A stretch of 58,180 bases of DNA from NCBI RefSeq assembly GCF_009936135.1, contig NZ_CP047901.1, positions 1 through 58,180 on the forward strand. Direction: 5' to 3'. The notes beneath the pieces are model-generated. The model was not told the DNA's origin. It did not search any database and was given only the letters and a program-made list of their open reading frames with translations. The position numbers and the translations under genes were made by a program. The DNA is from Candidatus Chazhemtobacterium aquaticus. GTDB lineage: Bacteria; Patescibacteriota; Microgenomatia; UBA1400; Chazhemtobacteraceae. Positions 18,501 to 55,197 of this stretch are shown one piece after another (positions within the stretch are counted from its first letter, which is position 1; each line of letters opens with the position of its first letter).

Positions 18501-19189
18501 ATGACTACAATCGAGGAGAACCAGTCGCTCACTGGAAAATGGATGAATGCCAAGGATCTACTATTCATGACTCATCAGATAATGGTAATCATGGAACCTG
18601 GAATGGCTCTGGAGGTACTCAAACATCAGTTGGTACCTGTACTACATCAGGTACTGCTTGGGGTAATGGTTCTACTGGTAAATTTGGCGCTTCTCTTAAT
18701 TTTGACGGGGAGGATGACTATCTAGTTAAAACAAGCCCGAACAATCTTCCCACAAAATCAGAAGCAACCTGGTCATGGTGGTCAAAAACAAGCAACTCAA
18801 GTTGGCTACAAGCAATAATTGGGGAACATCGCAACCAGTGGTCAATCAGACAGTCAAACAACTCGGTTTTCCTTGGAATAAACGCAGAACAACTAGGACC
18901 ATACTCATTTACTACTGACAACAACTGGAGTCATTACGCCATCACTTTCAAATCCGGTGATACTAAATTCTACAAGAATGGCAACCTCATACAAGAAGCC
19001 AGCACATCAGCAACGTCCACCGTCCCATCGCTAGCCACCCTATACATCGGCAGACGCAGTACTGTACCACCAAACTCATACAACTTCTCTGGCCAACTCG
19101 ACGACGTCCGAATCTACAACTACGCCCTCTCAGCAGCCCAAGTCAAAAAAGTCATGAACGAAGGTAGCGCTCTTAGATTCGGAGACTAA
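15558..19189 (+). pseudogene. DUF2341 + multi-LamG surface protein gene interrupted by a single frameshift (or assembly error) between 17558 and 17615
   Basis: ORF 15552/15558-17615 has an N-terminal TM helix. It also has the DUF2341 signature WNESWIYRKRIDISN..CEDLRITG..KVWVKLPSIPSSGTYIYAYYGNPSA and the LamG end IDEVKIYPYARTNDQI. It stops inside a LamG module. The frame of ORF 17822-19189 is open back to 17558. Upstream of its ATG it encodes the rest of that module: NYHHILVTYDSTTETKKIYIDGELDVSCTQGNYVAGLTNRIFTIGGVNTDFNFSGIIDEFKIYNSALTSGQIKQD. Downstream LamG ends are LDTMRIYDYVRSPAQI and LDDVRIYNYALSAAQV. Confidence 0.7.
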
Positions 19190-19272
19190 TTTATCTTAAG
19201 TCAACATCACAAAACTCCACCAAACAACACCATATTATCTTATGTTACTATCGACATATACTATATAGTTAC

Positions 19273-21444
19273 ATGCCCAACCATAGCCCCAAATCCATTC
19301 GCAAAAAGTTCTCTGATCAATTAGGTATCATCCCTATTCCCCTCATCATTGGCGCCATTCTCATGATCACTGCTGCTGCTGCCAGTATCCCCATCACCTA
19401 CATTATCAACCAAACATCCCAAGATACTCGTTCCCAAGCCACTGATAACTGCTGTGGTTCTGATGGAAGGGTGTGTACCACTGATGATGAGTGGGTAGCT
19501 GGATACTATGCTTGTCAAAGAGGTGAGTGTTCTGCCTGTTCCGGTGGGTCAAATCCAACACCTACTAGCGGAGGGTCTTGTGCTAGTGGATGGAGTTGTA
19601 ATGGACACTGTGCTGATCAAAACACAGTTAATATGTTTAACGGTACTTGGTGTGATGGTAAACAAAGATGGCTATATGAGGCAGGATGTGGAGGATCTGC
19701 TTCTAAACTAAAAAGTGAAGGTTGTGGAGGTGGGGGTGGAGGTACTTCCTGTGTATATAGTGATTTTTGTGCTGGCTGCATCCAAGCCAATCGCTGTCTC
19801 CAATATTCAGACGGCACCATCAAATACTGCAACCAATGGATCAGAGATGAATGCACAGAGTGCGAAATCGGTGGCTTCTGTCCCCAAGGAAAAAGCTGCA
19901 AATCCGGTATCAAATGCTCAAATGGATTTTGTGCCGTCAGTTGCAATACCCCCACCCCTACCAGCACTCCTGCTCCATCAGGTACCCAATGCTCTAGGAA
20001 TCAAAAAGAGTGTGTTAACTCCATCTCGTTCAAAACCTGCACTAATGGCTACTGGAGCAATCCAATATCCTGTTCTTCACTCGATCAAACAAAACCCAAG
20101 TGTGTCAACGGGTCATGTGTTTCAGCCAACGCCTCTGATGGTCGTCAAACAAATCTAGCCAGCTGCACCACCCCCTGTACAGACGTAGACAACTGCATCT
20201 GTAAAGCCAACAACTGCGTTACTCCTGTAGATGGAATCGTTACTAATGGTAATACCTGTGGTGTCAAACCTACTCCTACCTGTGTCTCACCAAATATGTC
20301 CATAGATCCAAATACCCAAACCTGCTGTCGAGGTCTACCCATGAGAATGCCCGCCTGGGGACCAGGGTATTACTGTATCGAAACTAGCCCTCCACCTCCC
20401 ACCTCCTCACCAAGCCCCACTAGTACTCCTACATATACTCCAACACCTACGGCAAGCAACACTCCCTCACCATCACCAACCGCTACATGGACACCGATAC
20501 CTACTCAAACCCCAACTCCACCCAGTCCAATAGGTACTTGCACAAGTGGATCAGCCTATCCAGATCTACTCAAATGCGCCCAATCATGTGCTGGCGACTG
20601 CACTCCTGACTCACTTGGTATTAGACGCTGCTGCCAACCAGCACCAACACCTACCTCAACACCAAGACCCTCTAGCACACCCACCTGGACTCCAACACCC
20701 ACACCCAGCGGACTCACCCCAACTATTTCTCTAACCATAGCTCCTACTGCAGTCCAAACACCACCTCCCTCTGTAACCACCACAACCACTCCAAGTCTCA
20801 GTCCCACAACCACTATCACACCAAGCGCATCACCAACTCTACCCAACTGTACTCCCGACGGTGAATACTACTACCTCACAACAATTTGTTGCTCGGGAGA
20901 ACACCATACGGAGTTCTCTGGCCTTGAAGTTTGTGGACCCTCACCCACTGCCACTCCCACTCCGTCACCCGCGGTTGTATCAGCCGTCCAGCAAGTTGCT
21001 CAAGCCATTGTTAACACAGTTACTCAGGCAGCCACTACCATCTGGAACTGGATCACCAGTGTAGGTCAAGCCAAACCAACCCCCACCCCCTCTCCAACGC
21101 CTTCACCAACTCTTACACCTTCGATCACCACTGCTCCTCCACCTCCAACTAATACCCCAACTTTCACCCCAACTCCCACCCCGACTTTCACTCCTACTGG
21201 CTCACCCACACCCCAATTCACTCTTACCATTACTCAAAACGACCTAATGAGTTACTGTGTCGAACAATACGGGAATCAATACACTTTACTTCTCACAGTC
21301 AATGGTCCCTACTGTTCTTACTACGATGGCCAAAGGACCCACCAACATCAAATTAACCCCAATTCCATCTGCCAAAACCTCACTGGTAATCCATCTGCCG
21401 TCGCCGTCCCCTTCGACAATCAATACCGCTGCGTTGTTAACTAA
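19273..21444 (+). CDS. Secreted or membrane-anchored Cys-rich protein with long Pro/Thr/Ser linkers
   Basis: 723-aa ORF with an N-terminal TM helix ([23 protein letters not shown]). Several Cys-dense blocks are separated by PT-rich linkers such as [48 protein letters not shown]. No enzymatic motif recognised. Confidence 0.75.
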
Positions 21445-28070: not shown

Positions 28071-29066
28071 ATGTCCAGCCTCTCGAATCTCAAAAAAATT
28101 GCCACTCTCTCCCTCCTTATAGCCATCACCATCGCTTTTACCACCCTCACTCTTCAACTTACCCAACAATCACAAGACACCCGCTCCAAAGCCTCTCAAT
28201 CAAATCCTCCCAGCAAGGACATCCGCCAAGACGATTGTCTTCAAGACACCAATAACAACGTCGTCTGCCCTCAATACCAATCCCCCTCTCCTGATTTCTG
28301 TCATGATGGTACCCTCATTTCAGGAGGAATCGATCAATGTGGCTGTCAACTTCCACCCGCCTGCCTTCCCCGTCTCTGTTGGAATCAAGTTATCTCCTGC
28401 AATGATGGTTACTGCTGGCCCAACGGCTGTCAAGGCGTTCCCAGCACCATGGCCTGCACCATGCAGCTAGTTCCTCTTTCCCAAAAACAACTTAACCAAT
28501 ATCAGCTCTGGCAAAATGCCGGTTCGCCCATATATCCTGGATGCACAGACACCCCACCTACCAATCAAGACGACCTTTTCAGCACCCAACCGCTAACCGT
28601 CACTTTTTGGGACGCTGAGTGGGATGGCCCCACACCAGTGCCTCAATTCACCAGCACCAGCCTCCTCAAACCTAATCACAGCTACGGAGTTGAGGTCCGC
28701 TTCCACATCCAGAACGTTATAAAAAACAGCACCGCTCCCACCCCCAATATCGCCATTAGAGAAATCATTAATGGCCAAACCAAAACCACTCGCACCATCC
28801 TCTATCAGGGCGTCATGGATCACCGCGACGGCTGGAGTGACACTTTTGTAGGTAGTGTCTTTACTGTCAACGAGGGAACAAATCAAATCACAGTTGAAAT
28901 AGACCCTGATAACCAAATCGCGGAAACCAACGAAAACAACAACAACACCTCTTACTCCTGGACCACCACCCAAACTTACTCCCCCTTTGATCTAAACCAA
29001 GATGGCACCATCAATCTTCTTGACTACAATCTCTTTCTCAATGGCTGGTTAGATACTTTTAAGTAA
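28071..29066 (+). CDS. Secreted Cys-rich protein with CARDB-like region and a C-terminal dockerin-like Ca-binding repeat
   Basis: N-terminal TM/signal (IATLSLLIAITIAFTTLTL) and a Cys-rich block. NQITVEIDPDNQIAETNENNN is typical of CARDB-type modules. The C-terminus DLNQDGTINLLDYNLFLNGW fits the dockerin/EF-hand loop DxNxDGxINxxD, in one copy only. Confidence 0.7.
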   Translation: MSSLSNLKKIATLSLLIAITIAFTTLTLQLTQQSQDTRSKASQSNPPSKDIRQDDCLQDTNNNVVCPQYQSPSPDFCHDGTLISGGIDQCGCQLPPACLPRLCWNQVISCNDGYCWPNGCQGVPSTMACTMQLVPLSQKQLNQYQLWQNAGSPIYPGCTDTPPTNQDDLFSTQPLTVTFWDAEWDGPTPVPQFTSTSLLKPNHSYGVEVRFHIQNVIKNSTAPTPNIAIREIINGQTKTTRTILYQGVMDHRDGWSDTFVGSVFTVNEGTNQITVEIDPDNQIAETNENNNNTSYSWTTTQTYSPFDLNQDGTINLLDYNLFLNGWLDTFK

Positions 29067-29067
29067 T

Positions 29068-30138
29068 ATGAACCCGCGTCGCCTCTTTCTCATCCTTCTT
29101 CCCATCATTCCCGTCATCATCGGCCTTATCCTCTTCCTTGTCGCCAGTTCCCAAAACCAAGACATCCGCCAACGTGCCTCGGGCACGAACCAGCCCATTA
29201 TCACTATTAGCACTTCCCCTTCATCCCCTAAAGCCAACCAACCAGTCACCATTACTCTTTCACTTAACACCACCACCAAATCAATCTCTGGCCTAGAAAT
29301 GAAAAACTTCCTCATCATCCCCGACTCAAATATATCCTTTGCCAATACTCCCACCCTTACCTCCATCAATATCCCAGAACTAGAAGTCTTTCATTCTTCA
29401 GTCCAACAAAACAGCCCAACCAGCGATCAAATCACCGCCATTACCCACATTCTCACCCTAAAAAGCACTAATACCCCCTACTCTACCCACAACCAATTAG
29501 TTCCTTTTGCTACCATCAGCTTCACCCCTACAGCCACCGGCAGCGTTCAGCTTAAGTTTGATGTCAACAACACCATTATGACCGAATATCAAAGTGATAC
29601 TGGAAATATTCTAGGCAGTCTCGACAACCTTACTCTCACCATCACCAATCCAGACCAAGATGATAACGACGACGGTAACAATGGTGATAACGACGACAAC
29701 GATCAAGACAACACTGATGAAATTACTTACGCTTCGTGTAACCAAACCTGTAACAGTCATTATGACTGTAAAGCCGGACTCTTCTGTTATCAAAACACCT
29801 GTCGAGAACCAGCCTGCCCCTCTGCCTCAGACTGCCAATGTCCGACTACAACTCCAACCCCCACCGCTACCCCAACCGCTACTCCCACAATCACACCTAC
29901 TAGTACCCCAACCTCCACCACTACTCCCGAAACCCTCTCCCTTAACTACACCAACGACCAGCAGTTCACCATTACTCTCTCTCCTTCACCCACCGCCACT
30001 TCTACTCCTACTCCCACCGTTATATCACCCCCTCCAGACTCAAACCCCAACCTCAAAGTTGCCCTCATCGCTGCCTCTGCCTCATTCATCGTTCTTCTTC
30101 TCACCTACCTCAGCCTAAAACGTCCACCCTCAGCGTAA
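29068..30138 (+). CDS. Membrane-anchored surface protein with a cohesin-like beta-sandwich, D/N-rich tract, Cys knot, PT linker and C-terminal TM anchor
   Basis: N-terminal TM helix. The region ITISTSP...ISGLEMKNFLIIPD...PFATISFTPTATGSVQLKFD resembles cohesin domains. It is followed by DQDDNDDGNNGDNDDNDQDNTDE, then CNQTCNSHYDCKAGLFCYQNTCREPACPSASDCQC. A PT-rich linker follows, then the C-terminal helix VALIAASASFIVLLLTYLSL with KRPP. The start is 2 nt after the previous stop. Confidence 0.7.
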   Translation: MNPRRLFLILLPIIPVIIGLILFLVASSQNQDIRQRASGTNQPIITISTSPSSPKANQPVTITLSLNTTTKSISGLEMKNFLIIPDSNISFANTPTLTSINIPELEVFHSSVQQNSPTSDQITAITHILTLKSTNTPYSTHNQLVPFATISFTPTATGSVQLKFDVNNTIMTEYQSDTGNILGSLDNLTLTITNPDQDDNDDGNNGDNDDNDQDNTDEITYASCNQTCNSHYDCKAGLFCYQNTCREPACPSASDCQCPTTTPTPTATPTATPTITPTSTPTSTTTPETLSLNYTNDQQFTITLSPSPTATSTPTPTVISPPPDSNPNLKVALIAASASFIVLLLTYLSLKRPPSA

Positions 30139-32962: not shown

Positions 32963-33619
32963 ATGTACCAAACCATCTTCACCCCCTTCCACTACCAAAC
33001 CACTAAACGCCTCCGTTACTTCTTCATTACTCTTGGCATCATCCTTTGGTTAGGTGCCTCTATTACTGCTTTTGCTCCCTCTCTTCCCCACCTACTCTAT
33101 CGTCTCTCACCCAATACTCCCAACACCCTAGCCGCCACCATTAGCAATACTGTACCCAGTAACAATGACCCCCTCTCCTACCAAGACGCCACCTCACTCC
33201 CTCCCAAAGACCCAAGCCTACCCCAGCAAAACACCCTCATCATCGACAAAATCGGGGTCAATGGTCAGATTCATGAAGGTGACAACTGGGAAGAGATCCT
33301 TAAAAAGGGTATCTGGCGCACCCCCGACTGGGGTACTCCTGAATCAAGCAACCGCCCCATCATCCTAGCTTCCCATCGCTGGGGCTATCTTGACTGGACC
33401 AATACTTTCAGAAGACTCAACTCTTTCTACAATTTGCCCAAGTTAGAATCAGGTGACACCATCTCCATCATCTGGAATCAACGCCAATACAACTATCAAG
33501 TCTATCTAAAAGAGTCATCCCAAACCATCACCGACTTCAACGCCGATCTCATTCTCTACACTTGTCAGCTCTGGAACTCACCCATCCGCATCTTCGTCTA
33601 CGCCAAGCATCTCGATTGA
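32963..33619 (+). CDS. Sortase-family transpeptidase
   Basis: N-terminal TM helix (YFFITLGIILWLGASITAFAP). Catalytic-type His in PIILASHRWGY, Cys in LILYTCQ (TLxTC-like) and Arg in NSPIRIFVY. Confidence 0.75.
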   Translation: MYQTIFTPFHYQTTKRLRYFFITLGIILWLGASITAFAPSLPHLLYRLSPNTPNTLAATISNTVPSNNDPLSYQDATSLPPKDPSLPQQNTLIIDKIGVNGQIHEGDNWEEILKKGIWRTPDWGTPESSNRPIILASHRWGYLDWTNTFRRLNSFYNLPKLESGDTISIIWNQRQYNYQVYLKESSQTITDFNADLILYTCQLWNSPIRIFVYAKHLD

Positions 33620-33652
33620 CAGTCATCTATGTATTCATTAATATATACAAAT

Positions 33653-33901
33653 ATGAATACATACTCCGTAACAGAACTACGTCAAAAAACCAGTGCCGTT
33701 ATCAAAGCCGCCCTTGAAAAGGGCTACGTCCACATTATCCAAAACTCCAAAGCCAAAGTAGCCGTTGTCGACAGCGACTATTTAACAACCCTGCAGGAAG
33801 CCTACGAAGACTATCTAGACCACCAAGTAATCAAAAATCGACGTGACGAACCCACTATCACTCTTGAAGAATATCTTAAAAAAGACACCATAAAACCATG
33901 A
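33653..33901 (+). CDS. Type II antitoxin, Phd/YefM family
   Basis: MNTYSVTELRQKTSAVIKAALEKGYVHIIQNSKAKVAVVDSDYLTTLQEAYEDYLD is Phd/YefM-like. An alternative ATG lies at 33629. Its stop overlaps the toxin start (ATGA at 33898-33901). Confidence 0.8.
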   Translation: MNTYSVTELRQKTSAVIKAALEKGYVHIIQNSKAKVAVVDSDYLTTLQEAYEDYLDHQVIKNRRDEPTITLEEYLKKDTIKP

Positions 33902-34152
33902 TCGTCACCATCTCTAGATCAGCTGAAAAAGAGCTCAAGAGATTACCACTCAGAATCAAACTAATCGTCATTTCCAAAATCAAGAGTCTAGCCAAACAAC
34001 CCAGGCCTCACAACTCCAAAAAACTGACTAACTACCCCAATGAATACCGCCTCCGAGCAGGTGATTATCGTATTCTCTACGTCATCGACGCTCACAAAAA
34101 AGAGGTTTCCGTTCGCGCTATCGCCCACCGCAAAGACGCATACAAAAAATAA
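33898..34152 (+). CDS. Type II toxin, RelE/ParE superfamily
   Basis: 84 aa. The C-terminal YRLRAGDYRILYVIDAHKKEVSVRAIAHRKDAY is typical of RelE/StbE-like mRNA interferases. It is translationally coupled to the antitoxin. Confidence 0.85.
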   Translation: MIVTISRSAEKELKRLPLRIKLIVISKIKSLAKQPRPHNSKKLTNYPNEYRLRAGDYRILYVIDAHKKEVSVRAIAHRKDAYKK

Positions 34153-34474
34153 TTCTCACCTCTACATCTTCATCAAACCTGAAATCTAGTTTTCACACCC
34201 TATTTTCACACTATATAGGCCTCGATAACCGCATCTGCGGTAATTATTTCAACACTCCACCTAAAACATATACTATTATAAGACACATAGTAACTCCCGC
34301 TCTATCCCTCACCATACTCCAGTATCGTACATATCTCACTCTCAAATACCTAATACTATTCAAATCAACACTCTATTCCTAACGAGAATATAGGATAGAT
34401 ATATCCACTAACAAATACCTAAAATATCTCCCATTTTTGTCACCAACCCCATCCCCTAGCCTCATCTTATATAC

Positions 34475-34503
34475 TTGACAAATAGAAATATATAGGATAT
34501 ACT
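34475..34503 (+). promoter_or_regulatory. Near-consensus sigma70-like promoter (TTGACA-17-TATACT)
   Basis: -35 TTGACA at 34475-34480, a 17-nt spacer, and -10 TATACT at 34498-34503. It lies ~350 nt upstream of the first island ORF. Confidence 0.5.
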
Positions 34504-34509
34504 ATAACC

Positions 34510-34855
34510 TACTTTAAAAATCAGATAAGTTTCGTTACAGACGCCAGTAGCAACCCTACTGATACGAGACTTAAATTATTAACTTTCTTTAAGTTAAACC
34601 ATACACAAGGGCGTCTCACAAGGACGCCCTTGTTGGTTTAACAGTAAGTATCTGGTCAAGAATTTACCCTCTGACTTAAAGCAGCGTCTGTCTTAAGTCA
34701 CAAAGGTAATCTCGACCAGTTACTTGCTCACTGCTCTTTTACATCCGTCAAGGTACTCATGAAATGGTGGATCACTTCTACCCTCTCCTAGCCAACCGGC
34801 TTTCAACCATTTCACGGTACCTTACGGCTAGGGAAATATATAAGGAGACACTCTA
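34510..34855 (+). promoter_or_regulatory. Long, highly structured 5' leader or candidate ncRNA (unclassified)
   Basis: Four consecutive hairpins:
- 34579-34597: TTAACTT/AAGTTAA.
- 34596-34639: core 10-bp perfect stem CAAGGGCGTC/GACGCCCTTG.
- 34643-34728: ~30 bp, imperfect, with arms CTGGTC/GACCAG, TTACC/GGTAA and TGACTTAA/TTAAGTCA.
- 34745-34827: CCGT, AAGGTAC and TGAAATGGT paired with ACCATTTCA, GTACCTT and ACGG.
An alternative pairing exists between CCTAGCC (34787-93) and GGCTAGG (34826-32). The region ends at AAGGAG (34842-47) and the ATG at 34856. Confidence 0.5.
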
Positions 34856-35293
34856 ATGAAGAAAACCATGGTTCGTGGTCTTATCGCCCTCCTCGTTCTG
34901 GTGATTGTCGGCCTCCTGGTCGCCTTCACCAATCAGGACACTTCAGTCACCACACCAACCGTCATCGTCAGCGATTATTCTCTCGACTGGCACAATGCCG
35001 TCGAAGATCTCCCTGTTGGCGTCTACAACTTCTGCAACGAAGCGTGTGGCAACAGAAACTTCACAGAATGGATTCGCCTCGGCGAAGCCACCAATACTGC
35101 AACCATCGAAGTTCACAATGTCACCCAGGCTCAAGCCTATGCTGGCGTGAACAAAGATGGCTACTTCTTCGATCCCCTGACCACCGATATTAACGGCGAC
35201 ATCGTCACCGTCGAATTGCCAGAGGGCCAGACCTCCTTCCTCCTGTGGATAGCCACAGAAAACAACGACCCATTCGGGATCGTTGACCGATAA
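34856..35293 (+). CDS. Hypothetical N-terminally anchored small protein (island gene 1)
   Basis: 145 aa. The RBS AAGGAG lies 8 nt upstream. TM helix GLIALLVLVIVGLLVAF. A terminator follows. No family recognised. Confidence 0.65.
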   Translation: MKKTMVRGLIALLVLVIVGLLVAFTNQDTSVTTPTVIVSDYSLDWHNAVEDLPVGVYNFCNEACGNRNFTEWIRLGEATNTATIEVHNVTQAQAYAGVNKDGYFFDPLTTDINGDIVTVELPEGQTSFLLWIATENNDPFGIVDR

Positions 35294-35322
35294 ACCAAAT
35301 CGGCTACCCATTACAGGACAGA

Positions 35323-35366
35323 GGGCGCAACAGCGCATTCCGCAGCCACTGCGCCCCTTCCTTTTT
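35323..35366 (+). terminator. Rho-independent terminator
   Basis: Stem GGGCGCA (35323-29) with TGCGCCC (35350-56), then CTTCCTTTTTCC. Confidence 0.55.
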
Positions 35367-35442
35367 CCCTAGCCGATTCCCCTCAGTTTTTCAAAGAAAC
35401 TTTGAAAAATTGAGGCAGAATCGCTCTTTTCTTGCCTATATC

Positions 35443-35451
35443 TGATATAAT
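35443..35451 (+). promoter_or_regulatory. Extended -10 promoter element (TGATATAAT)
   Basis: A perfect TGnTATAAT lies 37 nt upstream of the ATG at 35488. It is immediately preceded by a 35-nt AT-rich inverted repeat (35381-35415). Confidence 0.4.
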
Positions 35452-35487
35452 ATAGGACAATTATTAATTAGCCGATGAAAGGCAAAT

Positions 35488-35754
35488 ATGACCAGAAAGA
35501 ATAAACTATCTCTTTCTTTGGCTACTGCTTTTTTGAGTCTTGCACTTTTTATCAGTCCTGCAAAAGCTGAAGACAACGGCGAGTGCCAAATTGTCTACGG
35601 TGGACAGGTTTGTGGTTCATCCACTCCCGAAATCGTTGACACCGCTGGTGAAGCCGAACTGCTTTACGCTCTTTCCGGTGTCTTGTACACCACTGGACTG
35701 ACTAGCTTTGTGTTAGCCAAAAAAGCTGACAAACTCGTTCCCTTAATCGGTTAA
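35488..35754 (+). CDS. Small secreted protein with signal peptide and C-terminal hydrophobic/basic tail (island gene 2)
   Basis: 88 aa. Signal peptide LSLATAFLSLALFISPAKA-ED. The C-terminus has IVDTAGE, then the hydrophobic stretch LLYALSGVLYTTGLTSFVLA, then KKADK. Confidence 0.6.
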   Translation: MTRKNKLSLSLATAFLSLALFISPAKAEDNGECQIVYGGQVCGSSTPEIVDTAGEAELLYALSGVLYTTGLTSFVLAKKADKLVPLIG

Positions 35755-35850
35755 TCCCGATTAGGGATCGGGAAAGAGAATAAACTCTTGTTCTCTCCCC
35801 CGATCCCTGGCAATCCAGGAATCGCTTGTACATTCAATAGGAGACAGATC

Positions 35851-36252
35851 ATGTCAGAAGACAAAGGTTTTGACGCACGTCGCCAGCACCCGCATCCGTC
35901 GGACGATCGCCCGTTCCACCACGACGACATCCCTGAGGACGATCTCGACGCTTTCTTCGACGTCCCTGAAGTGGACATCCCGCGCCGGCCCACCCCACCT
36001 CCCATCCGGCCTCGCCGCGTCGAGACCGAAGATCCGCAGGAGCACTGGTCGAATGAGGTGCGCGGCACACCCAGCACGGCTCGTCAGCGGCAGCAACGCC
36101 GTCGCCAGCCTCAGGTACCCTTCCCGGCCAACCTGTTTAACGTCCCCCTGGACGAATACCTGGAAAAACCGGAGTGGTATCAAAACTTGACCTGGGGAGT
36201 CCTCGGCAGCTACATCATCGCCATTCTGGCCCTCCTCATCGCCATCCTGTAG
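35851..36252 (+). CDS. Hypothetical Pro/Arg/Asp-rich tail-anchored protein (island gene 3)
   Basis: The ATG at 35851 is preceded by AGGAGA (35839-44), giving 133 aa. There is a disordered acidic/basic N-terminal part and a C-terminal TM helix WGVLGSYIIAILALLIAIL. A terminator follows. Strand and frame were chosen on RBS, TM helix and terminator, because all six frames are open in this ~65% GC stretch. Confidence 0.5.
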   Translation: MSEDKGFDARRQHPHPSDDRPFHHDDIPEDDLDAFFDVPEVDIPRRPTPPPIRPRRVETEDPQEHWSNEVRGTPSTARQRQQRRRQPQVPFPANLFNVPLDEYLEKPEWYQNLTWGVLGSYIIAILALLIAIL

Positions 36253-36277
36253 TTCCATTCCCCCGTCTCCGCACCAT

Positions 36278-36322
36278 GGGTCGCCGTTATCGGCACACCG
36301 CCATCGGCGACCCAAAGTTTTT
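36278..36322 (+). terminator. Rho-independent terminator
   Basis: 9-bp stem GGGTCGCCG (36278-86) with CGGCGACCC (36305-13), followed by AAAGTTTTT. A second hairpin CCCTGAGA/TCTCAGGG lies at 36325-36358. Confidence 0.55.
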
Positions 36323-36429
36323 CTCCCTGAGAGCTGTTTTCATAAACATTTCTCAGGGGTAAAAACCTCCTACCACTTGGTAGCTTCAGGGAAACCTGTT
36401 GATAGCACATTCTATGGAGGAAATGCCAA

Positions 36430-36948
36430 ATGAAGAAAATCGTGATCGGTACCCTGATCGTCGTCGCGGTATTTGCCTGCGCCTGGCTGGTGCTCATCCC
36501 CATCATCGGCGGCTTGGACCTGAACTTCACCAATCCCAGTCTGGCCGGCGAACCAACCAACCCCGGCAACGGAAACCCCAGACAGACCGGCGGTCAAATG
36601 ACCTGGCTCAACGCCTGCACGTCAGAACCAGAAGAACAGGTGACCCAGTTGGTCGAAACCGGACAACCGGTTCCCAACGCCTGGATGTTTCTGGACAAGA
36701 ACGAGGCCGAGGTCGCCGCTGGAAACCTGTGGGCAATCGAAGTCCCCACCGGCGTCTACGGACAGGTTTTCATCCCCGCGACTGGGCTTACTCTTGAAGT
36801 ACGTGGCCCTGGCCGCATCCGCGTTGGCGCCGCCACCTTTTGGTGCAACGACACCGGCGATCAACCCCATCACGGGCAGATGCGCGTCCTCGACGCAAAA
36901 AACCTGCCCAAACCGGTCGGAGACTGGGTCAACATCAACTTGCCCTAG
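36430..36948 (+). CDS. Hypothetical N-terminally anchored protein (island gene 4)
   Basis: 172 aa. GGAGG lies at 36416-20. TM helix IGTLIVVAVFACAWLVLIPIIGG. A strong terminator follows. No family recognised. Confidence 0.6.
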   Translation: MKKIVIGTLIVVAVFACAWLVLIPIIGGLDLNFTNPSLAGEPTNPGNGNPRQTGGQMTWLNACTSEPEEQVTQLVETGQPVPNAWMFLDKNEAEVAAGNLWAIEVPTGVYGQVFIPATGLTLEVRGPGRIRVGAATFWCNDTGDQPHHGQMRVLDAKNLPKPVGDWVNINLP

Positions 36949-36985
36949 TCTATCCTCCCAGCCATGTCCACCAACATTGGCTACA

Positions 36986-37047
36986 AAGGCCATCTTTTCA
37001 GAACACGCAACCGCGTGCACCCCTGACGAAGATGGCCTTAACTTTTT
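36986..37047 (+). terminator. Rho-independent terminator marking the right edge of the high-GC island
   Basis: 11-bp stem AAGGCCATCTT (36986-96) with AAGATGGCCTT (37029-39), an inner CACGC/GCGTG hairpin, then AACTTTTT (T-run 37043-47). Confidence 0.6.
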
Positions 37048-37105
37048 AGCACTTAAATTGTTTTTAAGTTCTGGAAAGTTAATCAAAAAGACAATTAGTA
37101 AAAAT

Positions 37106-37873
37106 ATGACTAAAAAAATACCTCTTACCATCGTCATCCCCGTCTACAACGAGGCCTCTCGTCTGGAGCGGACCTTCACCAGTCTTAACCAGTGGCGAGT
37201 TCCTGTCGATCTTAAAATCAACCAAGTCATCTTTGTTAATGACGGCTCCACCGACGCTTCTCTAAAAATTCTTAAAAACACTCCCTTAAAGTTCTCCAAA
37301 AAGGTCATCTCCTACCGTCAAAACCAAGGTAAAGGTTACGCAGTCCGTCGTGGCATGCTTGCCTCCACCTCCTCTTACACCCTCCTTATGGATGCCGATA
37401 TTGCCACTCCCTTAAACGAGCTTAAAAAACTCCTTCCCTTCATGCATAACCAGACTGGCCTAATCATCGGTACCCGCAAAAATGGTCATTCCACTGTCAC
37501 CATTCATCAACCTTGGATTCGTGAGAACATGGGTAAAGTCTTTACCAAGCTAACTCAGCTCATCCTCGGTGTTAACGTCACCGACTTCACCTGTGGCTTC
37601 AAAGCCTTCTCTCGTGAAGCTGTTGATAAAATCTTTCCCCTTTCCCAAATCAATCGCTGGGGATATGACTCAGAAATCATCTTCTTAGGCAGCAAATTCA
37701 ATCTGTCTATTCAAGAGGTTCCTGTTAAATGGGCCGATCAAAAAGGTACCAAGGTCAATCTTGTTAAAGACTCCATTAACTCTCTTCTGGAGCTGCTCAC
37801 CATTAGATTAAACTCCATCTCTGGCGCCTACTCCACTAACCAAAACTTCTCTCCTCTAGGTATACTCAAATAA
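37106..37873 (+). CDS. Family 2 glycosyltransferase (polyprenyl-phosphate sugar transferase-like)
   Basis: The internal ATG at 37106 gives MTKKIPLTIVIPVYNEASRLE..VIFVNDGSTDAS..GKGYAVRRGM..LLMDADIATP, which are GT2/DPM1-like motifs. The ORF-track extension back to 36794 runs through the island terminator and is rejected. Confidence 0.85.
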   Translation: MTKKIPLTIVIPVYNEASRLERTFTSLNQWRVPVDLKINQVIFVNDGSTDASLKILKNTPLKFSKKVISYRQNQGKGYAVRRGMLASTSSYTLLMDADIATPLNELKKLLPFMHNQTGLIIGTRKNGHSTVTIHQPWIRENMGKVFTKLTQLILGVNVTDFTCGFKAFSREAVDKIFPLSQINRWGYDSEIIFLGSKFNLSIQEVPVKWADQKGTKVNLVKDSINSLLELLTIRLNSISGAYSTNQNFSPLGILK

Positions 37874-37875
37874 GT

Positions 37876-38697
37876 ATGACCAAACCACTAGTCAGCGTCG
37901 TTCTCCCTGTTTACAACGCCGCCCCCTATCTTCAAGCCTGTCTTGACAGTATCGCCAGCCAATCCTACCGCCCCCTTGAACTTATAGCCATCAACGACCA
38001 CTCTACCGACAACTCCCTGGATATCTTAAAAAAATTTGCCAAAGGTAAGTCCTGGGCCAAAATCCTAACCAACCCAAAAAACCTTGGCGTCTCACCCACC
38101 TTTAACAAAGGTGTGGCCAAAGCCAAATCCATCTACATAGCCCGCATGGATGCAGACGATCTCATGCACAAAGATCGGATTAAAAAACAACTAGACTTTC
38201 TCCTCACCCATCCTGACGTAGTTGCTGTCGGTACCCAATGCCAGCTCATCGACAAACACGGGCATCCTACCGGCCAAAAACTCTTTCCCACTTCTCACCA
38301 GCAGATCAAGGACATGTTATTTCGTACCGTTCCCATGCAACAACCTTCCATCATGATCAACCGCTCACTTCTTCCCAAAGATTTTGTCTTTGGTGACAGT
38401 CGTTTCTCCCCTGCCGAAGACTACGACCTCTTTTTCCGCCTTCTTCCTTACGGCAAGCTCGCCAATCTGCCCCAACTACTTCACTTCTATCGCGAACACG
38501 ACACCAATATCTCCTTAGTTAAACCCAAATTCACTTTCTGGAAGATTACTAGAGCTAAAATAAACGCCGTCCTTCACCATCGCTATATCCCCAGTTTCCG
38601 CTCCTTGACCGTTTTTCTCGCCCAATTAATCGCTATTACTCTCCTCCCCAGCTCTCTTATCTACCCCCTCCACTCAAAATTACGCGGCATGAAGTAA
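37876..38697 (+). CDS. Family 2 glycosyltransferase
   Basis: VSVVLPVYNAAPYLQACLDSIASQSY..LIAINDHSTDNS..YIARMDADD are GT-A/GT2 motifs. The start is 3 nt after the previous stop. Confidence 0.85.
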   Translation: MTKPLVSVVLPVYNAAPYLQACLDSIASQSYRPLELIAINDHSTDNSLDILKKFAKGKSWAKILTNPKNLGVSPTFNKGVAKAKSIYIARMDADDLMHKDRIKKQLDFLLTHPDVVAVGTQCQLIDKHGHPTGQKLFPTSHQQIKDMLFRTVPMQQPSIMINRSLLPKDFVFGDSRFSPAEDYDLFFRLLPYGKLANLPQLLHFYREHDTNISLVKPKFTFWKITRAKINAVLHHRYIPSFRSLTVFLAQLIAITLLPSSLIYPLHSKLRGMK

Positions 38698-38699
38698 CC

Positions 38700-41453
38700 A
38701 TGAAATTCAAACTCTCAGCCAAAACCAAACTCAACCTCAAATCCATTCTTCCTCCCTTCATCTATCTCCTTCTTACCTCCCTACTTATTTTCCTAAACTA
38801 CGAACCCAACACCTGGTTTACTGGTTGGGACAATCTTCACCCTGAATTCAATCCCGATATTAATCTAAAAAGAGCCCTTGATACCACTTGGCAGGAATAC
38901 CAATCTCTAGGACTAGTCGGCGGTATGGGCCATGCTGCCGATCTTTTACGCCAACTCTTCTTAATACCCTTCTACTCCTTCCTTCATCCCTCTCTCATCC
39001 GCTATCTCTTCGCCTTTATTACCCTCACCCTAGGACCCATCGGCACCTATCTTCTCACCCGTCACACCCTTACCAACTTTCCCCGTTTCTCCATCAACAC
39101 TAAGATCATCGCCTCCTTTTTTGCCGGACTTTTCTATCTCCTCAATCTAGGCACTCTCCAAACTTTCTACGCTCCTTTCGAGACCTTCATTGCCTTTTAT
39201 GCCTCCCTCCCCTGGCTTCTTTTAAGTGTCTTTGTTTACCTAGACTCACCTACCCGTCGCCACCTTCTTTTCCTCATTCTCGTCAATCTACTCTCCACGC
39301 CTTCCTTCTATATCCAAACCCTCTTCCTTGTTTATCTCTTCACCCTCCTACCCATAATCATTACTCATTTACTCAAAAAAGAAGCCCTACTTCAAAAAAT
39401 ATCCACTCTCTTTTTCTTAAGTCTAATCACTCTTATCACCCACGCCTTTTGGCTTTTCCCCGTTGCCCATTTTACTCTAAACAACGCCTCAGTTACCCTC
39501 ACCTCTGCCCAAAATCATCTCGGCACCCAGGATGTGGCCTTAAGAAATCAAGAATTTGGCGACCTCAAAAACGTCACTTTGCTTAAAGGTTTCTGGTTCG
39601 ATTTTGTCTCACTTAATCCTGCCACTGATAAGTTCGAAATCATGATGGGTCCCTGGACCGATCATCTAAATCAACCAGTCGTTCTAATCATCGGCTACTC
39701 ATTCTTTGTCCTTGTTCTCATCGGCCTCTTCTACTCACTCAAAAAACGCCTCCCTCACTCCATCCCTCTTGCCTTTACTCTATTCCTCTCCCTCTTCTTC
39801 CTTATCAACTCCAATCCTCCCACCGGTTTTCTTTTCGATTTTCTTACTGACCAGATCCCCTTGCTTGGCCAATCATTCCGCTCTGTTTACACCAAGTGGT
39901 CTACCCCTGCCGCCCTCTCCTACTCCCTCTTTTTTAGCATTGGTGTTATTTTCTTACTTGATCTTTTTTCTTTCCTCCACACCCACCTTACCACCTTTAT
40001 CACCTCCTTCACTCTCATCCTAACACTCCTTATCTTCTCCGGACCCATGTTCCAAGGCCACCTAATCTATCCTGCCATGAAACAATCCATTCCCGATGCC
40101 TATTTCCAGCTCTTTGATTTCTTCGACCATCAAGACAAAAATACTAGGATCGCCAACTTACCCCAGCACACTCTCTGGGGTTGGCAGTTTTATAACTGGG
40201 GCTATCAAGGCTCAGGCTTTCTCTGGTATGGGATTGAGCAGCCCATCCTAGATCGCGCCTTTGACACCTGGTCCTCTGCTTCAGAAAACTACTACCACCA
40301 AATCTCCCAAGCCATCTACTCTCAAAACCTCACTCAATTAGAGAATCTCATCGATCAATACCAGATCAACTGGTTTATTCTCGACCGCTCTCTTATCATT
40401 CCCGCCTCCACCTCTCAAAAAGCCCTCTTCATTCCCCAAATTGAAAAACTCTTAAACCAAAGCGACAAAATTGATCATATCTCCGATTTTGACTTTATCT
40501 CCGTCTACCAAACCAACCCTTCCACTCAACCACAAAACTTTTTCTCCACCAAGGCCTTTAATCCTCAACCCATCATCTTTGCCGATCCCGAGCTTGATAC
40601 CACCCAATTTAATCTTCTTGAAACCCCCTCAGTCAATCGCTCCACCACCAAAAACGAAGCCACTAACTGCGACCCCTACAACTCCACCTCCTACACCAAA
40701 ACCATTGCCCCCGACAAAATTACCTATACCTCCATTAACGCCAATCTCTGTGACCACTTCACCTATCCCCAACTTCCCCATGCCTACGGCTACAAAATCA
40801 CCATTGATCATCAAAATATCTCCGGCCAGCCGCTTCTTGTTTGTCTTGAATCATACGCTAGTGGCACCTGCCTGATTTACCAATATCTTGATACCGACTC
40901 CAACCACCCTTTTACTACTTCCACCCTTACCGTTCCTCCCATGAATCCCCAAGATTATGGTTACACCCTCCATCTCTACAACTACTCCATCGGTCGTCTC
41001 AAGACCGAAAACGCTTGGCGCCAAATCGAGATTCAACCTCTTAATCCCACCACCTTCGATCTCACTCCAAACTCCTCAACCCATCCATATACACAACTAA
41101 ATACCACTCAGAAGCGCGCCTACTCCCTCTACACCGCCTCTGCCTCCTCATCTCAAGCCAACTCCTTACTTGTCCTAAACCAAGCCTATGACGAGGGCTG
41201 GAAAGCCTATCAAGCCAACTTTTTCTCTCAAAAACTTCCCAACTGGCTACTTTACCTTAACTCGCTTCTACTTGTTCCCATCCCTGAAGACCAGCACATC
41301 ATCGCCAACGACTGGGCCAACGGCTGGCTACTTCCCCAAGACGACTCACACCTGATTATTGTCTACCGACCTCAACTCTTTCAATTTTTTGGCTTCTCAC
41401 TCCTTCTCTTTCTCCCCTTGCTCACATTCCTTCATCCCAACAAACAAGATTAA
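38700..41453 (+). CDS. Large polytopic membrane protein, GT-C-type glycosyltransferase-like (YfhO/AftD-like architecture)
   Basis: 917 aa. About 12 TM helices lie in the first ~470 aa, with an early periplasmic-loop acidic motif (WFTGWDNLHPEFNPD). A large soluble C-terminal domain and a terminal TM helix follow. It directly follows two GT2 genes. The family call is by architecture. Confidence 0.6.
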   Translation: MKFKLSAKTKLNLKSILPPFIYLLLTSLLIFLNYEPNTWFTGWDNLHPEFNPDINLKRALDTTWQEYQSLGLVGGMGHAADLLRQLFLIPFYSFLHPSLIRYLFAFITLTLGPIGTYLLTRHTLTNFPRFSINTKIIASFFAGLFYLLNLGTLQTFYAPFETFIAFYASLPWLLLSVFVYLDSPTRRHLLFLILVNLLSTPSFYIQTLFLVYLFTLLPIIITHLLKKEALLQKISTLFFLSLITLITHAFWLFPVAHFTLNNASVTLTSAQNHLGTQDVALRNQEFGDLKNVTLLKGFWFDFVSLNPATDKFEIMMGPWTDHLNQPVVLIIGYSFFVLVLIGLFYSLKKRLPHSIPLAFTLFLSLFFLINSNPPTGFLFDFLTDQIPLLGQSFRSVYTKWSTPAALSYSLFFSIGVIFLLDLFSFLHTHLTTFITSFTLILTLLIFSGPMFQGHLIYPAMKQSIPDAYFQLFDFFDHQDKNTRIANLPQHTLWGWQFYNWGYQGSGFLWYGIEQPILDRAFDTWSSASENYYHQISQAIYSQNLTQLENLIDQYQINWFILDRSLIIPASTSQKALFIPQIEKLLNQSDKIDHISDFDFISVYQTNPSTQPQNFFSTKAFNPQPIIFADPELDTTQFNLLETPSVNRSTTKNEATNCDPYNSTSYTKTIAPDKITYTSINANLCDHFTYPQLPHAYGYKITIDHQNISGQPLLVCLESYASGTCLIYQYLDTDSNHPFTTSTLTVPPMNPQDYGYTLHLYNYSIGRLKTENAWRQIEIQPLNPTTFDLTPNSSTHPYTQLNTTQKRAYSLYTASASSSQANSLLVLNQAYDEGWKAYQANFFSQKLPNWLLYLNSLLLVPIPEDQHIIANDWANGWLLPQDDSHLIIVYRPQLFQFFGFSLLLFLPLLTFLHPNKQD

Positions 41454-41833
41454 ACAACAGCTGCCTCCAGCCTCCTTATCCGCTTCTCATGCCTATCAAG
41501 CATCCTCCCCTGATGATCAGTAATCACCGTTAACTTCCTATCAATTCCATCAATCTTACTCTCTAACCCATCAACCCTATCGCCAACTTCCCTAATCGAC
41601 TCTGCATTAGCCATTATCAACTCCCTATTTTCCCGCACAACCTCTACAACAAGCTTCATTTCTCGCTCTACCGCCGGGCCAACCGCCTTGTTTACCGCTT
41701 TATCCACCGCTGGACCAACCGATCTATCTATTGCCTTGTTTACCGCTTTATCCACCGCTGGACCAACCGATCTACCTATTGCCTCTCCAACCATCCCCGC
41801 AATCCACCTCTTATCATCCATTGTCAACGCCAT
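41450..41833 (-). CDS. Hypothetical coiled-coil protein with internal 16-aa tandem repeat
   Basis: 127-aa ORF containing SVGPAVDKAVNKAIDR/SVGPAVDKAVNKAVGP repeats and a heptad-like C-terminal half. It overlaps the convergent GT-C gene by 4 nt. Confidence 0.55.
   Translation of the reverse strand: MALTMDDKRWIAGMVGEAIGRSVGPAVDKAVNKAIDRSVGPAVDKAVNKAVGPAVEREMKLVVEVVRENRELIMANAESIREVGDRVDGLESKIDGIDRKLTVITDHQGRMLDRHEKRIRRLEAAVV
41685..41780. repeat. 48-bp tandem direct repeat x2 (one mismatch), coding
   Basis: GCCTTGTTTACCGCTTTATCCACCGCTGGACCAACCGATCTA(T/C)CTATT occurs at 41685-41732 and 41733-41780. A degenerate partial copy lies just upstream. Confidence 0.85.
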
Positions 41834-42284
41834 ATACCCTAGTATATCAAAACAAAAAGCCTCAGAAGCGGGCTGGTGACATGCCTGCCCAACCTGTCAC
41901 CAAACCCCTTCTAAGGCCTTTACCTTCCTTGACAGCGTTTTTTTGGAGTGCTAACCTTCACACAGATTCGTGCCACCTGTCCTGGCACAATCTTAAAATG
42001 GAAAGGCATTACTATTCGAGTTAGGCTGCGGTAGTAATGCCTTTCTCGTCTCTACTTTCCAAATTCCAAACAAAATTTTGTTAATTTCAGCGTCTTTTAC
42101 TGATACACCGCAGTATAGCACTACAATCTCCAAATCGTCAACCTGTAGTAAATTATTACAGTAAAATCCCCATATCCTATATCAATATTTTTCTCTAAAA
42201 TAGCCACGAAAATGACCTCTTATCATCCTAATAAATCTCTTGTGGAAAACTCATTCCTACTCTATCTTGGTGTATAGTTAACTC

Positions 42285-53468: not shown

Positions 53469-54239
53469 TTACTTAAGTGTCACCATCATCCCATCACGAG
53501 CAAGCAAACACCTTTTTGCCCGCAGAAAATTCTCTATCTCCTTAACATTCTCAGAATGATTTACATGAGTATAAATCACCTCTCGCTTCAATATATCCAC
53601 AGATTTCTCAATTGTCAGATGATTAAATTTTGAAGCAGGATAAGTATTTTCATTTAAGAAAGTCCCATCAAATACAACAACATCAATCATCGCGATTTCC
53701 TTAATCATCTTTTCTGTTATCTCGCTCACATCAGGTGAATACCATACCTTACCTGACGAATCGGATACGATTACAGCCACTGTGGGAAATCCAGGGTCAT
53801 GGGGAACATCGACCAGCTTCACTCCACACTTCTTTGCATTATCCTCACTCACCAACTTAACAAAACCTGACTTGACCATATACTCAATTTCTTGATTGGG
53901 AAACCTTTTCCAAAGTCTCCGAACCCTCTCAGACACCAACACCGGAACCTTACACGGCCGACCTCCAGACAACTCAATTAACCCATTCGCATGATCAAAA
54001 TGAAAATGAGTTATCACAATCAAATCTAAATCTCGAATCTTCAATCCAACACCACTTAATTGCTGACGAAAATCCGGACCACAATCCAATAGAATTCTTG
54101 ACCTTTTTGTCTCAACCAACAAACTACTCCTCAGCCGCTGTTTATTCTTTTTCTTTAAAGCAGCACGGCAATACTTACAGTCGCAATCCACTTGAGGCAA
54201 ACCACCATTAGCGCCAGTTCCCAAAAAAGTTATCTTCAT
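53469..54239 (-). CDS. MBL-fold metallo-hydrolase (PhnP/tRNase Z-like)
   Basis: The N-terminal FLGTGANGGLPQVDCDCKYC has the Cys cluster seen in PhnP/PqqB-like members. The HxHxDH motif is ITHFHFDHANG. The 4-nt overlap (ATGA, 54236-54239) is with the upstream NTase-like gene. The stop (53469-53471) lies 3 nt upstream of the tyrS start at 53465. Confidence 0.8.
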   Translation of the reverse strand: MKITFLGTGANGGLPQVDCDCKYCRAALKKKNKQRLRSSLLVETKRSRILLDCGPDFRQQLSGVGLKIRDLDLIVITHFHFDHANGLIELSGGRPCKVPVLVSERVRRLWKRFPNQEIEYMVKSGFVKLVSEDNAKKCGVKLVDVPHDPGFPTVAVIVSDSSGKVWYSPDVSEITEKMIKEIAMIDVVVFDGTFLNENTYPASKFNHLTIEKSVDILKREVIYTHVNHSENVKEIENFLRAKRCLLARDGMMVTLK

Positions 54240-55177: not shown

Positions 55178-55197
55178 ATTTTTTATAAATAAATAAC

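Follow-up and report, generated by a model that had tools for sequence, protein, structure and literature searches.

The region at 34470–37050 of the window studied here carries four small genes on the + strand, which we call A (34856–35293, 145 aa), B (35488–35754, 88 aa), C (35851–36252, 133 aa) and D (36430–36948, 172 aa). The window is a stretch of 58,180 nucleotides (nt) from the chromosome of Candidatus Chazhemtobacterium aquaticus, and all positions refer to it unless a related locus is named. With moderate confidence, we interpret the cassette A–D as belonging to a long-established cell-envelope cluster, passed on vertically in this Microgenomates bacterium, a member of the Candidate Phyla Radiation (CPR), and as forming its front part, which is variable and strongly transcribed. 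The conserved core of this cluster is composed of a B-type peptide, a protein with a D-family ectodomain, two family 2 glycosyltransferases (GT2) and a giant, presumably polytopic membrane protein, and a sortase gene is located nearby in several lineages. The cassette products probably form a strain-specific surface shown to hosts and phages.

Four transcribed genes with divergent alleles

Relatives of the region were collected by exact-protein look-ups and homology searches (related loci are cited by L numbers, sequencing runs by X numbers). In the + strand frames, changes relative to these relatives are concentrated at codon position 3, and the ratio of nonsynonymous to synonymous divergence (dN/dS) is 0.1–0.5, while the rival minus-strand open reading frames (ORFs) gain one to four stops in relatives and show lower identity than the + frames. 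The third-position excess and the broken minus-strand ORFs together establish that the + strand genes are real; they are under purifying selection, and the minus-strand ORFs are by-products of high GC. A first-pass annotation, made from the sequence alone, had chosen exactly these four genes and this strand, and both choices are upheld. It had also raised mis-assembly at the borders, which is excluded. Two further runs gave contigs with 100% identity over 15,015 and 6,766 nt, one contig of run X1 (84x word depth) spans the region without differences, and contigs of runs X4 and X13 cross both borders; these independent spanning contigs demonstrate that the region is not chimeric.

The four genes are transcribed in natural communities. 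Over the 18 kb examined in two metatranscriptomes, contigs of X25 cover A, C and D only (at contig depths of 17–45, a rough guide) and contigs of X28 cover A, B and D only, with no contig on the Obg, Rho, sortase or GT2 genes or on the gene of a 917-aa protein. Similarly, over the 3.8 kb examined in X27 and X31, the cassette genes alone are covered, and none of the contigs lies over the start of the GT2 gene or over a neighbouring toxin–antitoxin (TA) pair. RNA contigs begin at 34761–34782, before A, and at 36374–36397, before D, just 3′ of promoter-like elements at 34738–65 and 36337–65, respectively.

The cassette is embedded in flanks that are 92–100% identical between strains, within which it forms a sharp-edged mosaic of divergence. 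DNA identity between strains is 76–90% for A, 61–99% for C and 60–82% for D, with a sharp return to 97–98% at 37001, and 94–100% for the leader upstream of A, for B and for the spacers. Synonymous divergence (dS) is 0.16–1.16 for A, C and D, compared with 0.06–0.35 for the sortase, Rho and glycosyltransferase genes. Since dS is higher among the alleles than in the flanks, the alleles must predate the strains in which they now occur, indicating allele replacement by recombination. For A, C and D alike, the alleles are either deeply diverged or variable in length. The same region might be read as a set of ordinary, weakly constrained envelope genes, evolving by relaxed selection and local mutation bias without diversifying or balancing selection, with a composition that follows from amino-acid content and local mutational context. 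It is compatible with this that dN/dS is below 1 everywhere, that the products have disordered linkers and indel-tolerant regions, and that few alleles were sampled. We nevertheless regard it as unlikely, because a dS 3–10 times that of the flanks, with sharp edges, is beyond relaxed constraint, the compositional anomaly lies at synonymous sites, the genes are the locally best-covered transcripts, and the D domain and a B module are conserved over deep divergence in fixed synteny.

In every related strain found, the cassette lies between the sortase gene and the GT2 genes. Furthermore, D homologues of 23–46% identity are located directly 5′ of two GT2 genes and the gene of the giant protein in L003, L004, L077 and L079, and in L081 two small genes intervene between the D homologue and the GT2 genes. 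This deep synteny indicates that the cassette is ancestral and not a foreign island. Homologues of A–D were found in this lineage only, and the nearest named protein match is to "Microgenomates group bacterium ADurb.Bin238".

Upstream of the cassette there is a Phd/YefM–ParE pair on the + strand (33629..34152), whose genes overlap by 4 nt (ParE, 44.6 bits with a cut-off of 23; PhdYefM, 27.4 bits with a cut-off of 29.8). The pair is absent from L071, which retains A–D, so it is an independent insertion outside the cassette; the TA pair and the gene-A module described below are separate indels. In L003, a pair that resembles HicB/HicA by eye (4991–5471) separates the gene with the B module from that of the D homologue. 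Addiction modules, which differ by lineage, thus seem to insert preferentially into the spacers of the cluster.

Base composition and the question of an acquired island

The + strand of the window contains 32.3% C and 14.5% G, and GC skew per kb ranges from -0.10 to -0.64 across the window, regardless of the coding strand. At third codon positions of + strand genes, C makes up 43% (C3) and G 6.6% (G3), and minus-strand genes are the mirror image; the amino-acid make-up of the proteins encoded in the window (1–58180) also shifts with the encoding strand. A G/C strand disparity of this size over the whole chromosome has already been published for UBA1400 Microgenomates, with 14.97% G and 29.83% C in strain Ch65 (CP047901), whose genome is said to encode a sortase (PMC7143001).

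The first-pass annotation had described the region as an island of about 65% GC without skew, in which all six frames are open. The GC content was overstated: it is 51.7% at 34470–37050 and 58.7% at 35800–36950, and 63–67.5% is reached in 200-nt windows only, with the peak within gene C. The skew is lowered to -0.16 (window mean -0.38 ± 0.12) and still present; 36001–36060 contains 20 G and 20 C. That all six frames are open is a side effect of high GC. Among 556 equal-sized windows, 50 have a GC content at least equal to that of 34470–37050, and its G fraction (21.7%, compared with 14.6 ± 3.2%) is the highest of all. The values of G3 are 0.28 for C, 0.23 for D, 0.13 for A and 0.11 for B (0.03–0.11 in 32 other genes of the window), and those of GC content at third codon positions (GC3) are 0.74 for C, 0.74 for D, 0.65 for A and 0.39 for B (0.34–0.60 in the same 32 genes). 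The anomaly is a property of single genes, not of the whole block: C and D are outliers at synonymous sites, A is marginal and B is ordinary. C3 is still far above G3 in the cassette genes, as in the + strand genes of the host. High expression was rejected as a cause of the raised GC3, since the gene for ribosomal protein S1 has an ordinary GC3.

The same anomaly is found in distant relatives. Compared with its flanks, the D-family gene has a higher GC content and a weaker skew in L003, L004, L077, L079 and L081 (GC 0.58 vs. 0.41–0.46 in L004, 0.56 vs. 0.44 in L079 and 0.63 vs. 0.50 in L081), and its presence in every diverged lineage implies that the anomaly is of long standing and stays with the gene slot. 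In L072 (846–1523), a more distant relative, the gene of an unrelated N-terminally anchored protein of 225 aa fills the slot between B and the GT2 gene; it too is richer in GC and less skewed than the sequence around it, with a G3 of 0.23 compared with 0.06 in the adjacent GT2 gene. The slot takes non-homologous ectodomain genes sharing one composition signature. For C and D, the excess in GC3 and G3 fits either GC-biased repair at a recombination hot spot or a flow of alleles between related lineages. Elsewhere in the window, weak skew (-0.10 to -0.16) is also seen at 15552–20000, over large ORFs of secreted or surface type (687, 455 and 723 aa); G3 is only 0.07–0.08 there, so the cause of the weak skew differs from that in C and D.

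The original proposal was a compact foreign set of genes next to a TA pair, serving in defence, exclusion or host interaction, or the remnant of a mobile element from a high-GC donor; in the form weighed here, the function of the block is coupled to the TA pair. Several observations agree with an acquisition: C and D are synonymous outliers (G3 0.23–0.28 vs. at most 0.11; GC3 0.74), the G fraction is the highest among 2.6-kb stretches, the alleles predate the strains and may move between related lineages, hairpins with TTAACTT and AAGTTAA arms stand near both ends, and a TA pair lies upstream. However, position and order are constant in all strains and deeply diverged lineages, with synteny at 23–46% D identity, and because the D family is GC-rich in every lineage, with C3 far above G3 as in the host, composition pinpoints no donor. 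An integrase, a flanking tRNA or a long repeat was not found either: no tRNA gene stands closer than 26.7 kb, repeats of at least 40 nt touching 34470–37050, of the type used by diversity-generating retroelements (DGRs) or any other, are absent, and no recombinase was recognised among the neighbouring genes. Searches of phage and plasmid DNA collections returned no relatives, nor did protein-pattern scans in which the alignments of A and D were run on IMG/VR, and neither A–D nor the TA proteins matched PADLOC-DB at E ≤ 0.1. As L071 keeps the cassette and lacks the TA pair, a defence or exclusion unit built on that pair is given up together with the foreign block and the mobile remnant, and of the original proposal host interaction is the part that is still a live reading. 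Overall, we consider an acquired island very improbable.

The hairpins with TTAACTT and AAGTTAA arms lie at 34579–34597 and 37038–37083, near both compositional borders. They were rejected as island borders, since the left one forms part of the leader RNA and L077 does not have it. In a lineage with an extreme chromosome-wide G/C bias, local relaxation of that bias flags genes with fast turnover, not foreign DNA, which calls for caution with islands called from composition.

Products, neighbouring enzymes and expression signals

The most conserved gene of the cassette is B (94–100% protein identity between strains, dN/dS about 0.1). Its product begins with a signal peptide, which has a basic n-region, a hydrophobic core at residues 7–25 (Kyte–Doolittle value 1.82 in a hydropathy scan) and, read by eye, a cleavage-type site AKA-ED, after AKA. 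A loop between Cys33 and Cys42 follows, then the pentapeptide IVDTA (35632–35646), a hydrophobic segment (roughly EAELLYALSGVLYTTGLTSFVLA) and a basic tail, KKADK, with K78 invariant; there is no passenger domain. Over five lineages, this module keeps C33, V36-Y37-G38, C42, V50-D51-T52, Y67, G70-L71, F74 and K78. The pentapeptide has an invariant VDT followed by G, A or S (IVDTA, IVDTS, VVDTG), in which the T and the small residue of the classical motif are kept and its L and P are replaced. The module was also identified on proteins of 82 aa (L081), 167 aa (L079) and 179 aa (L003), all encoded 5′ of D homologues, and the latter two carry T/P-rich stalks. When metagenomes were scanned with the B alignment, a chance match to CQIVYGGQ in an unrelated high-GC contig (L078) was dismissed, and close strains only were found otherwise.

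The sortase gene (32963..33619, + strand, 218 aa) matches Pfam Sortase with 36.1 bits (cut-off 26.6). Its best NCBIfam matches are class D sortases, weak and sub-threshold, it matches no PDB sequence, and it is too divergent for class assignment. The gene is directly 5′ of a B homologue in L072, 2 kb 5′ of a B-module protein in L003, and 5′ of the cassette in the window. Judging from these sequences and positions, B is a candidate sortase client with a sortase-like C-terminal sorting signal, and the sortase is probably its processing enzyme. B itself matches neither TIGR01167 nor Gram_pos_anchor, and the B homologue of L081 scores 11.7 bits on the LPXTG_anchor model TIGR01167, under the cut-off of 15.9. 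In the proposed pathway, B would be exported by Sec and held in the membrane by its C-terminal segment, until the neighbouring sortase cuts between the T and the G, A or S of (I/V)VDT[GAS], at a predicted site after T52 within SSTPEIVDTAGEA. Such a cleavage would leave a disulfide-looped peptide of about 25 residues on the wall or on a partner.

A secreted toxin or bacteriocin with its immunity protein, used in antagonism between strains, would assign the effector to B or D and immunity to C. The products are small, secreted or membrane-bound and contain Cys loops, A, C and D are polymorphic with coexisting variants, and transcription is strong. In addition, the VYGGQVC loop of B bears a loose resemblance to the YGNGV-C box of class IIa bacteriocins. 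We hold this explanation to be very doubtful, because toxins usually vary together with their immunity genes and B varies least, ending moreover in a retained anchor or sorting-type module that is common to stalk proteins elsewhere. Furthermore, the D family is anchored or carries a lipobox throughout, its conserved neighbours are glycosyltransferase genes and not genes for export or immunity, and toxin, bacteriocin and immunity families gave no match.

By hydropathy, D has an N-terminal anchor, possibly with a degenerate lipobox (VFAC), which is followed by a variable G/N/P/T-rich stalk and a beta-sandwich domain of about 110 aa with two invariant Cys. The AlphaFold2 (AF2) model shows a helix at residues 2–26, disorder at 27–68 and a beta domain with a predicted local distance difference test (pLDDT) of 70–84. 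Using the D profile, 17 further clusters were obtained at E < 1e-10, all with an N-terminal transmembrane helix or lipoprotein leader, a variable linker and the same domain of about 110 aa with its two invariant Cys. The 22 family members have no common Pfam match and, including the family profile, no match to PDB sequences, and the D model has no fold match in PDB or BFVD; the D domain is an undescribed family. Between strains, D is 39–74% identical at a dS of 0.8–1.2.

A has an N-terminal membrane anchor by hydropathy, an invariant FTNQ..S motif and two conserved Cys. Its AF2 model has a helix at residues 2–25/26 and a beta-sandwich (pLDDT 64), and comparison with PDB folds yielded generic beta-sandwich matches alone (E about 0.01, TM-score about 0.35). 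Similarity between A and D is undetectable, which leaves a paralogue reading unsupported. Ten clusters of A homologues (71–99% identity) were found; the protein is 71–86% identical between strains, third-position changes are in excess and dN/dS is 0.21–0.48. The homologue in L077 is only 29.5% identical, at a locus where the GT2 is 85% and B 94% identical. Conserved Cys pairs, a sign of extracytoplasmic character, occur in A, B and D. A–D have no significant match in Pfam, NCBIfam, PHROGs or PADLOC, nor do the three minus-strand ORFs, so the earlier impression that no known family is present stands, as do the anchors and the signal peptide it had read, with which hydropathy for A–D and the AF2 helices of A and D agree.

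The invariant FTNQDTS of A resembles a motif that stands behind the hydrophobic segment in other N-anchored proteins of the window (19273–21444, 28071–29066, 29068–30138), for example NQDIRQRA. This post-anchor motif may be a lineage-specific signal for N-terminal processing or sorting. Two of these genes make up a second region of variable surface proteins at 28071–30138, with a 331-aa CARDB-domain gene and a 356-aa gene, over which L064 aligns in fragments only (28164–28473, 28562–29494, 29829–30076) and the gene calls of L059 differ.

Gene A is part of a module on the + strand (34730..35431) that comprises a promoter-like element (TTTACA and TGAAAT with 16 nt between them, 34738–65), a leader hairpin, the gene and two hairpins. 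In L059 and L061, about 33 nt stand in place of the 702-nt module, and a DNA sample and an RNA sample each contain forms with A alongside forms without it. A 30-codon upstream ORF (34764–34856) was rejected, as it is not conserved and 2-nt indels in L068 break its frame. One could think here of an integron- or shufflon-like array, in which hairpin sites between the ORFs serve site-specific recombination and so explain the presence or absence of A and the replacement of C. Every spacer indeed carries one or two strong hairpins, and whole-gene modules are swapped or missing between strains. Even so, such an array is extremely unlikely: no integrase or recombinase was recognised near the locus or among annotated neighbours, the hairpins share no common sequence, gene order is constant between strains, and a junction at which 702 nt are replaced by 33 nt is not a clean excision. 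For a DGR, no repeat of at least 40 nt was found at 34470–37050, allele differences spread over all codon positions, and the search for a reverse transcriptase, which was non-exhaustive, gave none.

The product of C is tail-anchored, with a C-terminal hydrophobic anchor and a charged, P/R/D/E-rich N-terminus of variable length that is probably disordered and cytoplasmic. Between strains, C is 60–93% identical (dN/dS 0.13–0.40) or replaced by tail-anchored variants of 58, 59 and 103 aa. Other variants are 134 or 135 aa long, one that is known in part exceeds 160 aa, and the variants share only the anchor or an anchor-adjacent motif, VPFPA.LF..P..EY.EK.EWYQN. One length variant in the read sets skips 222 nt in the stretch 35882–36105 and with them most of the GC-richest, P/R/D-rich segment, so the GC peak itself is an insert prone to indels and probably disordered.

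Downstream of D are two GT2 genes on the + strand, at 37106–37873 (the first, like polyprenyl-phosphate sugar transferases) and 37876–38697, which match Pfam Glycos_transf_2 with 96.7 and 113.5 bits, respectively. Their nearest NCBIfam models are PgfS, ArnC, AglJ and dolichyl- or polyprenyl-phosphate sugar transferases, all below cut-off. The next gene (38700–41453, + strand) encodes the 917-aa protein, which is taken as a polytopic membrane protein from its terminal sequences and matches no family or solved structure. The intergenic stretch behind it (41454–42284) contains a 48-nt tandem duplication, perfect to 98% (41685–41780), and is replaced in other strains: L059 is unaligned over 41448–41853 and a contig of X26 skips 41437–41854.

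Upstream of the cassette, a sigma-70-type promoter on the + strand (34475..34503; TTGACA and TATACT with a 17-nt spacer, 11 of 12 consensus matches) precedes a structured noncoding leader of about 220 nt (34510..34731, + strand), whose fold has a z-score of -8.9 against shuffled sequences. The promoter is invariant in six strains and reads TTGACA...TATAAT in the diverged L077. Four hairpins make up the leader: a 5′ hairpin (34528–34574), two small ones (34579–34597 and 34599–34640) and a long one (34643–34731). It is nearly invariant in the six strains despite flanking synonymous divergence of up to 0.35, and in A-bearing strains the stretch runs on into the leader of A itself. L077 lacks the two small hairpins and keeps the 5′ and the long one, and in the latter 6 of 34 pairs are changed on both sides (compensatory changes). 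As an RNA element, the leader is thus real and structured, and it may serve in attenuation, in transcript stability or as a site of processing. Rfam has no match to it at E ≤ 10 (34100–34860) and none at gathering threshold, it contains no + strand ORF of at least 20 aa, and there is no further copy in the window or the fetched loci. An RNA contig of X27 joins 34664–34728 to gene B through a junction that lacks A, and the leader is poorly represented in RNA contigs relative to the coding regions.

The genes also have expression signals of their own, as had been claimed from the sequence. Of the strong Shine–Dalgarno sites reported for each gene, those of A (AAGGAG, 34842–47), C (AGGAGA, 35839–44) and D (GGAGG, 36416–20) hold, and that of B is weaker (GAAAGG). 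The three intrinsic terminators reported earlier all fold as strong hairpins followed by U-tracts (-18 to -29 kcal/mol, z -2.8 to -6.5); a simple terminator scan missed two of the three, because their loops are longer than 8 nt. All are on the + strand: after A at 35323..35366 (-18.1 kcal/mol, then UUCCUUUUUCC), after C at 36277..36325 (-24.7 kcal/mol, then AAAGUUUUUCU) and after D at 36986..37047 (-28.9 kcal/mol, then AACUUUUUAG), the last in a stretch 97–98% identical between strains. Each is accompanied by a further + strand hairpin, at 35381–35415 after A (-19.3 kcal/mol, z -6.9), at 36317–36366 after C (-24.2 kcal/mol; it overlaps the promoter-like element TTTTCA-17-TAAAAA at 36337–65) and at 37038–37083 after D (-17 kcal/mol). 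Paired changes occur in the hairpin region after C in L059 and L061.

For B, an extended -10 promoter element on the + strand was read in the sequence at 35443..35451 (TGATATAAT), and it is kept in L059 and L061. The spacer between B and C contains a + strand hairpin without a U-tract (35763..35808, -32 kcal/mol, z -7.1), and RNA-library contigs bridge it (35635–35882 and 35767–35840), so that B and C probably share a transcript. The window has four ATATAGGA octamers, and three of them cluster here, 5′ of the leader promoter (34388–34395), in the promoter spacer (34490–34497) and just past the -10 element of B (35450–35457). They could be the operator of a shared regulator; their count is mildly unusual (four were reached in 6 of 100 shuffles). 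Further from the cassette, a T-box leader (55237–55490, minus strand, 99.4 bits, above gathering score) lies 5′ of the minus-strand gene 54236–55270, and two tRNA-Ala genes are found at 26108 and 26700.

Interpretation and comparison with known systems

Taken as the variable front of an old envelope cluster, the cassette could work as follows. A and D would be held by an N-terminal helix or lipid and would present disulfide-bonded beta-sandwiches on flexible T/S/P/N/G-rich stalks, which the adjacent GT2 enzymes and large membrane protein may glycosylate. C would be fixed by its tail anchor and extend a disordered arm into the cytoplasm. Homologous recombination anchored on B and the hairpin-rich spacers may swap alleles and thereby keep A, C and D diverse, and the likely pressure would come from phages or from the organisms to which this probable epibiont attaches. 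High GC3 and G3 in C and D would then track allele turnover and not a single import.

A bolder version is a CPR-specific display system of three undescribed parts, namely a dedicated sortase signal composed of a disulfide loop and (I/V)VDT[GAS], with B as its minimal client lacking a passenger domain; a new family of disulfide-bonded beta-sandwich ectodomains (D, joined by A in this clade), coupled genetically to a glycosylation machine of GT2 enzymes and the giant membrane protein, whose hypervariable alleles would set host attachment or phage adsorption; and a conserved structured leader RNA in control of the cassette. None of the libraries searched contains the sorting module of B, the ectodomain family of D or the leader RNA, and we regard this version as possible but less likely than not.

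Several points weigh against the envelope-cluster interpretation. The surface placement of the products is predicted from sequence and models, and the AF2 models of A and D are moderate (pLDDT 64–65, from 9–10 sequences). The B motif is not LPXTG, all curated anchor models score below cut-off, and there is no sortase gene within 8 kb of the B-module genes of L079 and L081. The suggested glycosylation rests on synteny and sub-threshold glycosyltransferase similarity. With dN/dS below 1, relaxed constraint and recombination could give the same picture, and the near-invariance of the leader and B could come partly from a recent recombinational sweep instead of constraint. The GC3 and G3 excess has two candidate causes. 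The RNA contigs are assembled and unstranded and may include DNA, and X26, nominally an RNA run, has the appearance of DNA.

The prevailing view of the CPR (Patescibacteria) is that the cells live attached to other microbes, and, to our knowledge, their surface molecules other than type IV pili are almost all "hypothetical proteins". The locus names a small set of strongly transcribed envelope proteins that differ between strains, and conserved synteny ties them to a sortase and a glycosylation module. Additionally, the candidate sorting signal, which is testable, and the new ectodomain family could help to annotate many CPR genomes.

In Gram-positive LPXTG anchoring with a dedicated sortase and a single client, the closest parallel for B, the client likewise has a signal peptide and a three-part C-terminal signal, and B shares with it a short motif ending in T and a small residue, a hydrophobic segment, a basic tail and an adjacent sortase-family gene. 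That client and processing enzyme are conserved as a pair agrees with the reasoning applied to dedicated sorting systems (bioRxiv 10.1101/2023.06.07.544157). Unlike LPXTG systems, B has (I/V)VDT[GAS], preceded by an invariant disulfide loop C-x2-VYG-x4-C, it keeps invariant residues inside the hydrophobic segment and has no passenger domain, and it does not reach the anchor model.

Glycosylation modules that combine a GT2 polyprenyl-phosphate sugar synthase with a large polytopic transferase include Pgf of Streptococcus mutans, actinobacterial Ppm1/Pmt, and GtrB or CsbB with YfhO. The cluster is similar in that a GT2, a second GT2 and a presumed membrane protein of 917–1284 aa are conserved directly 3′ of anchored proteins with T/S/P stalks. 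It differs in that the matches are far below equivalog cut-offs, the large protein matches no family or structure, and the link is one of synteny.

With acquired genomic islands, the cassette shares the atypical composition and codon usage of C and D and the indel of gene A; unlike them, it has no mobility genes, tRNA flanks or long repeats, its synteny is deep, and the anomaly recurs in every lineage. Compared with strain-variable surface islands, hypervariable loci for surface proteins or glycans that lie between conserved genes and are maintained by recombination under pressure from phages or hosts, it is very small (four genes, 88–172 aa), contains the nearly invariant B and has no phase-variation repeats, invertible elements or DGR. 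It is like these islands in its sharp divergence peaks between nearly identical flanks, in the presence or absence of genes, in coexisting variants, and in envelope products that are highly expressed.

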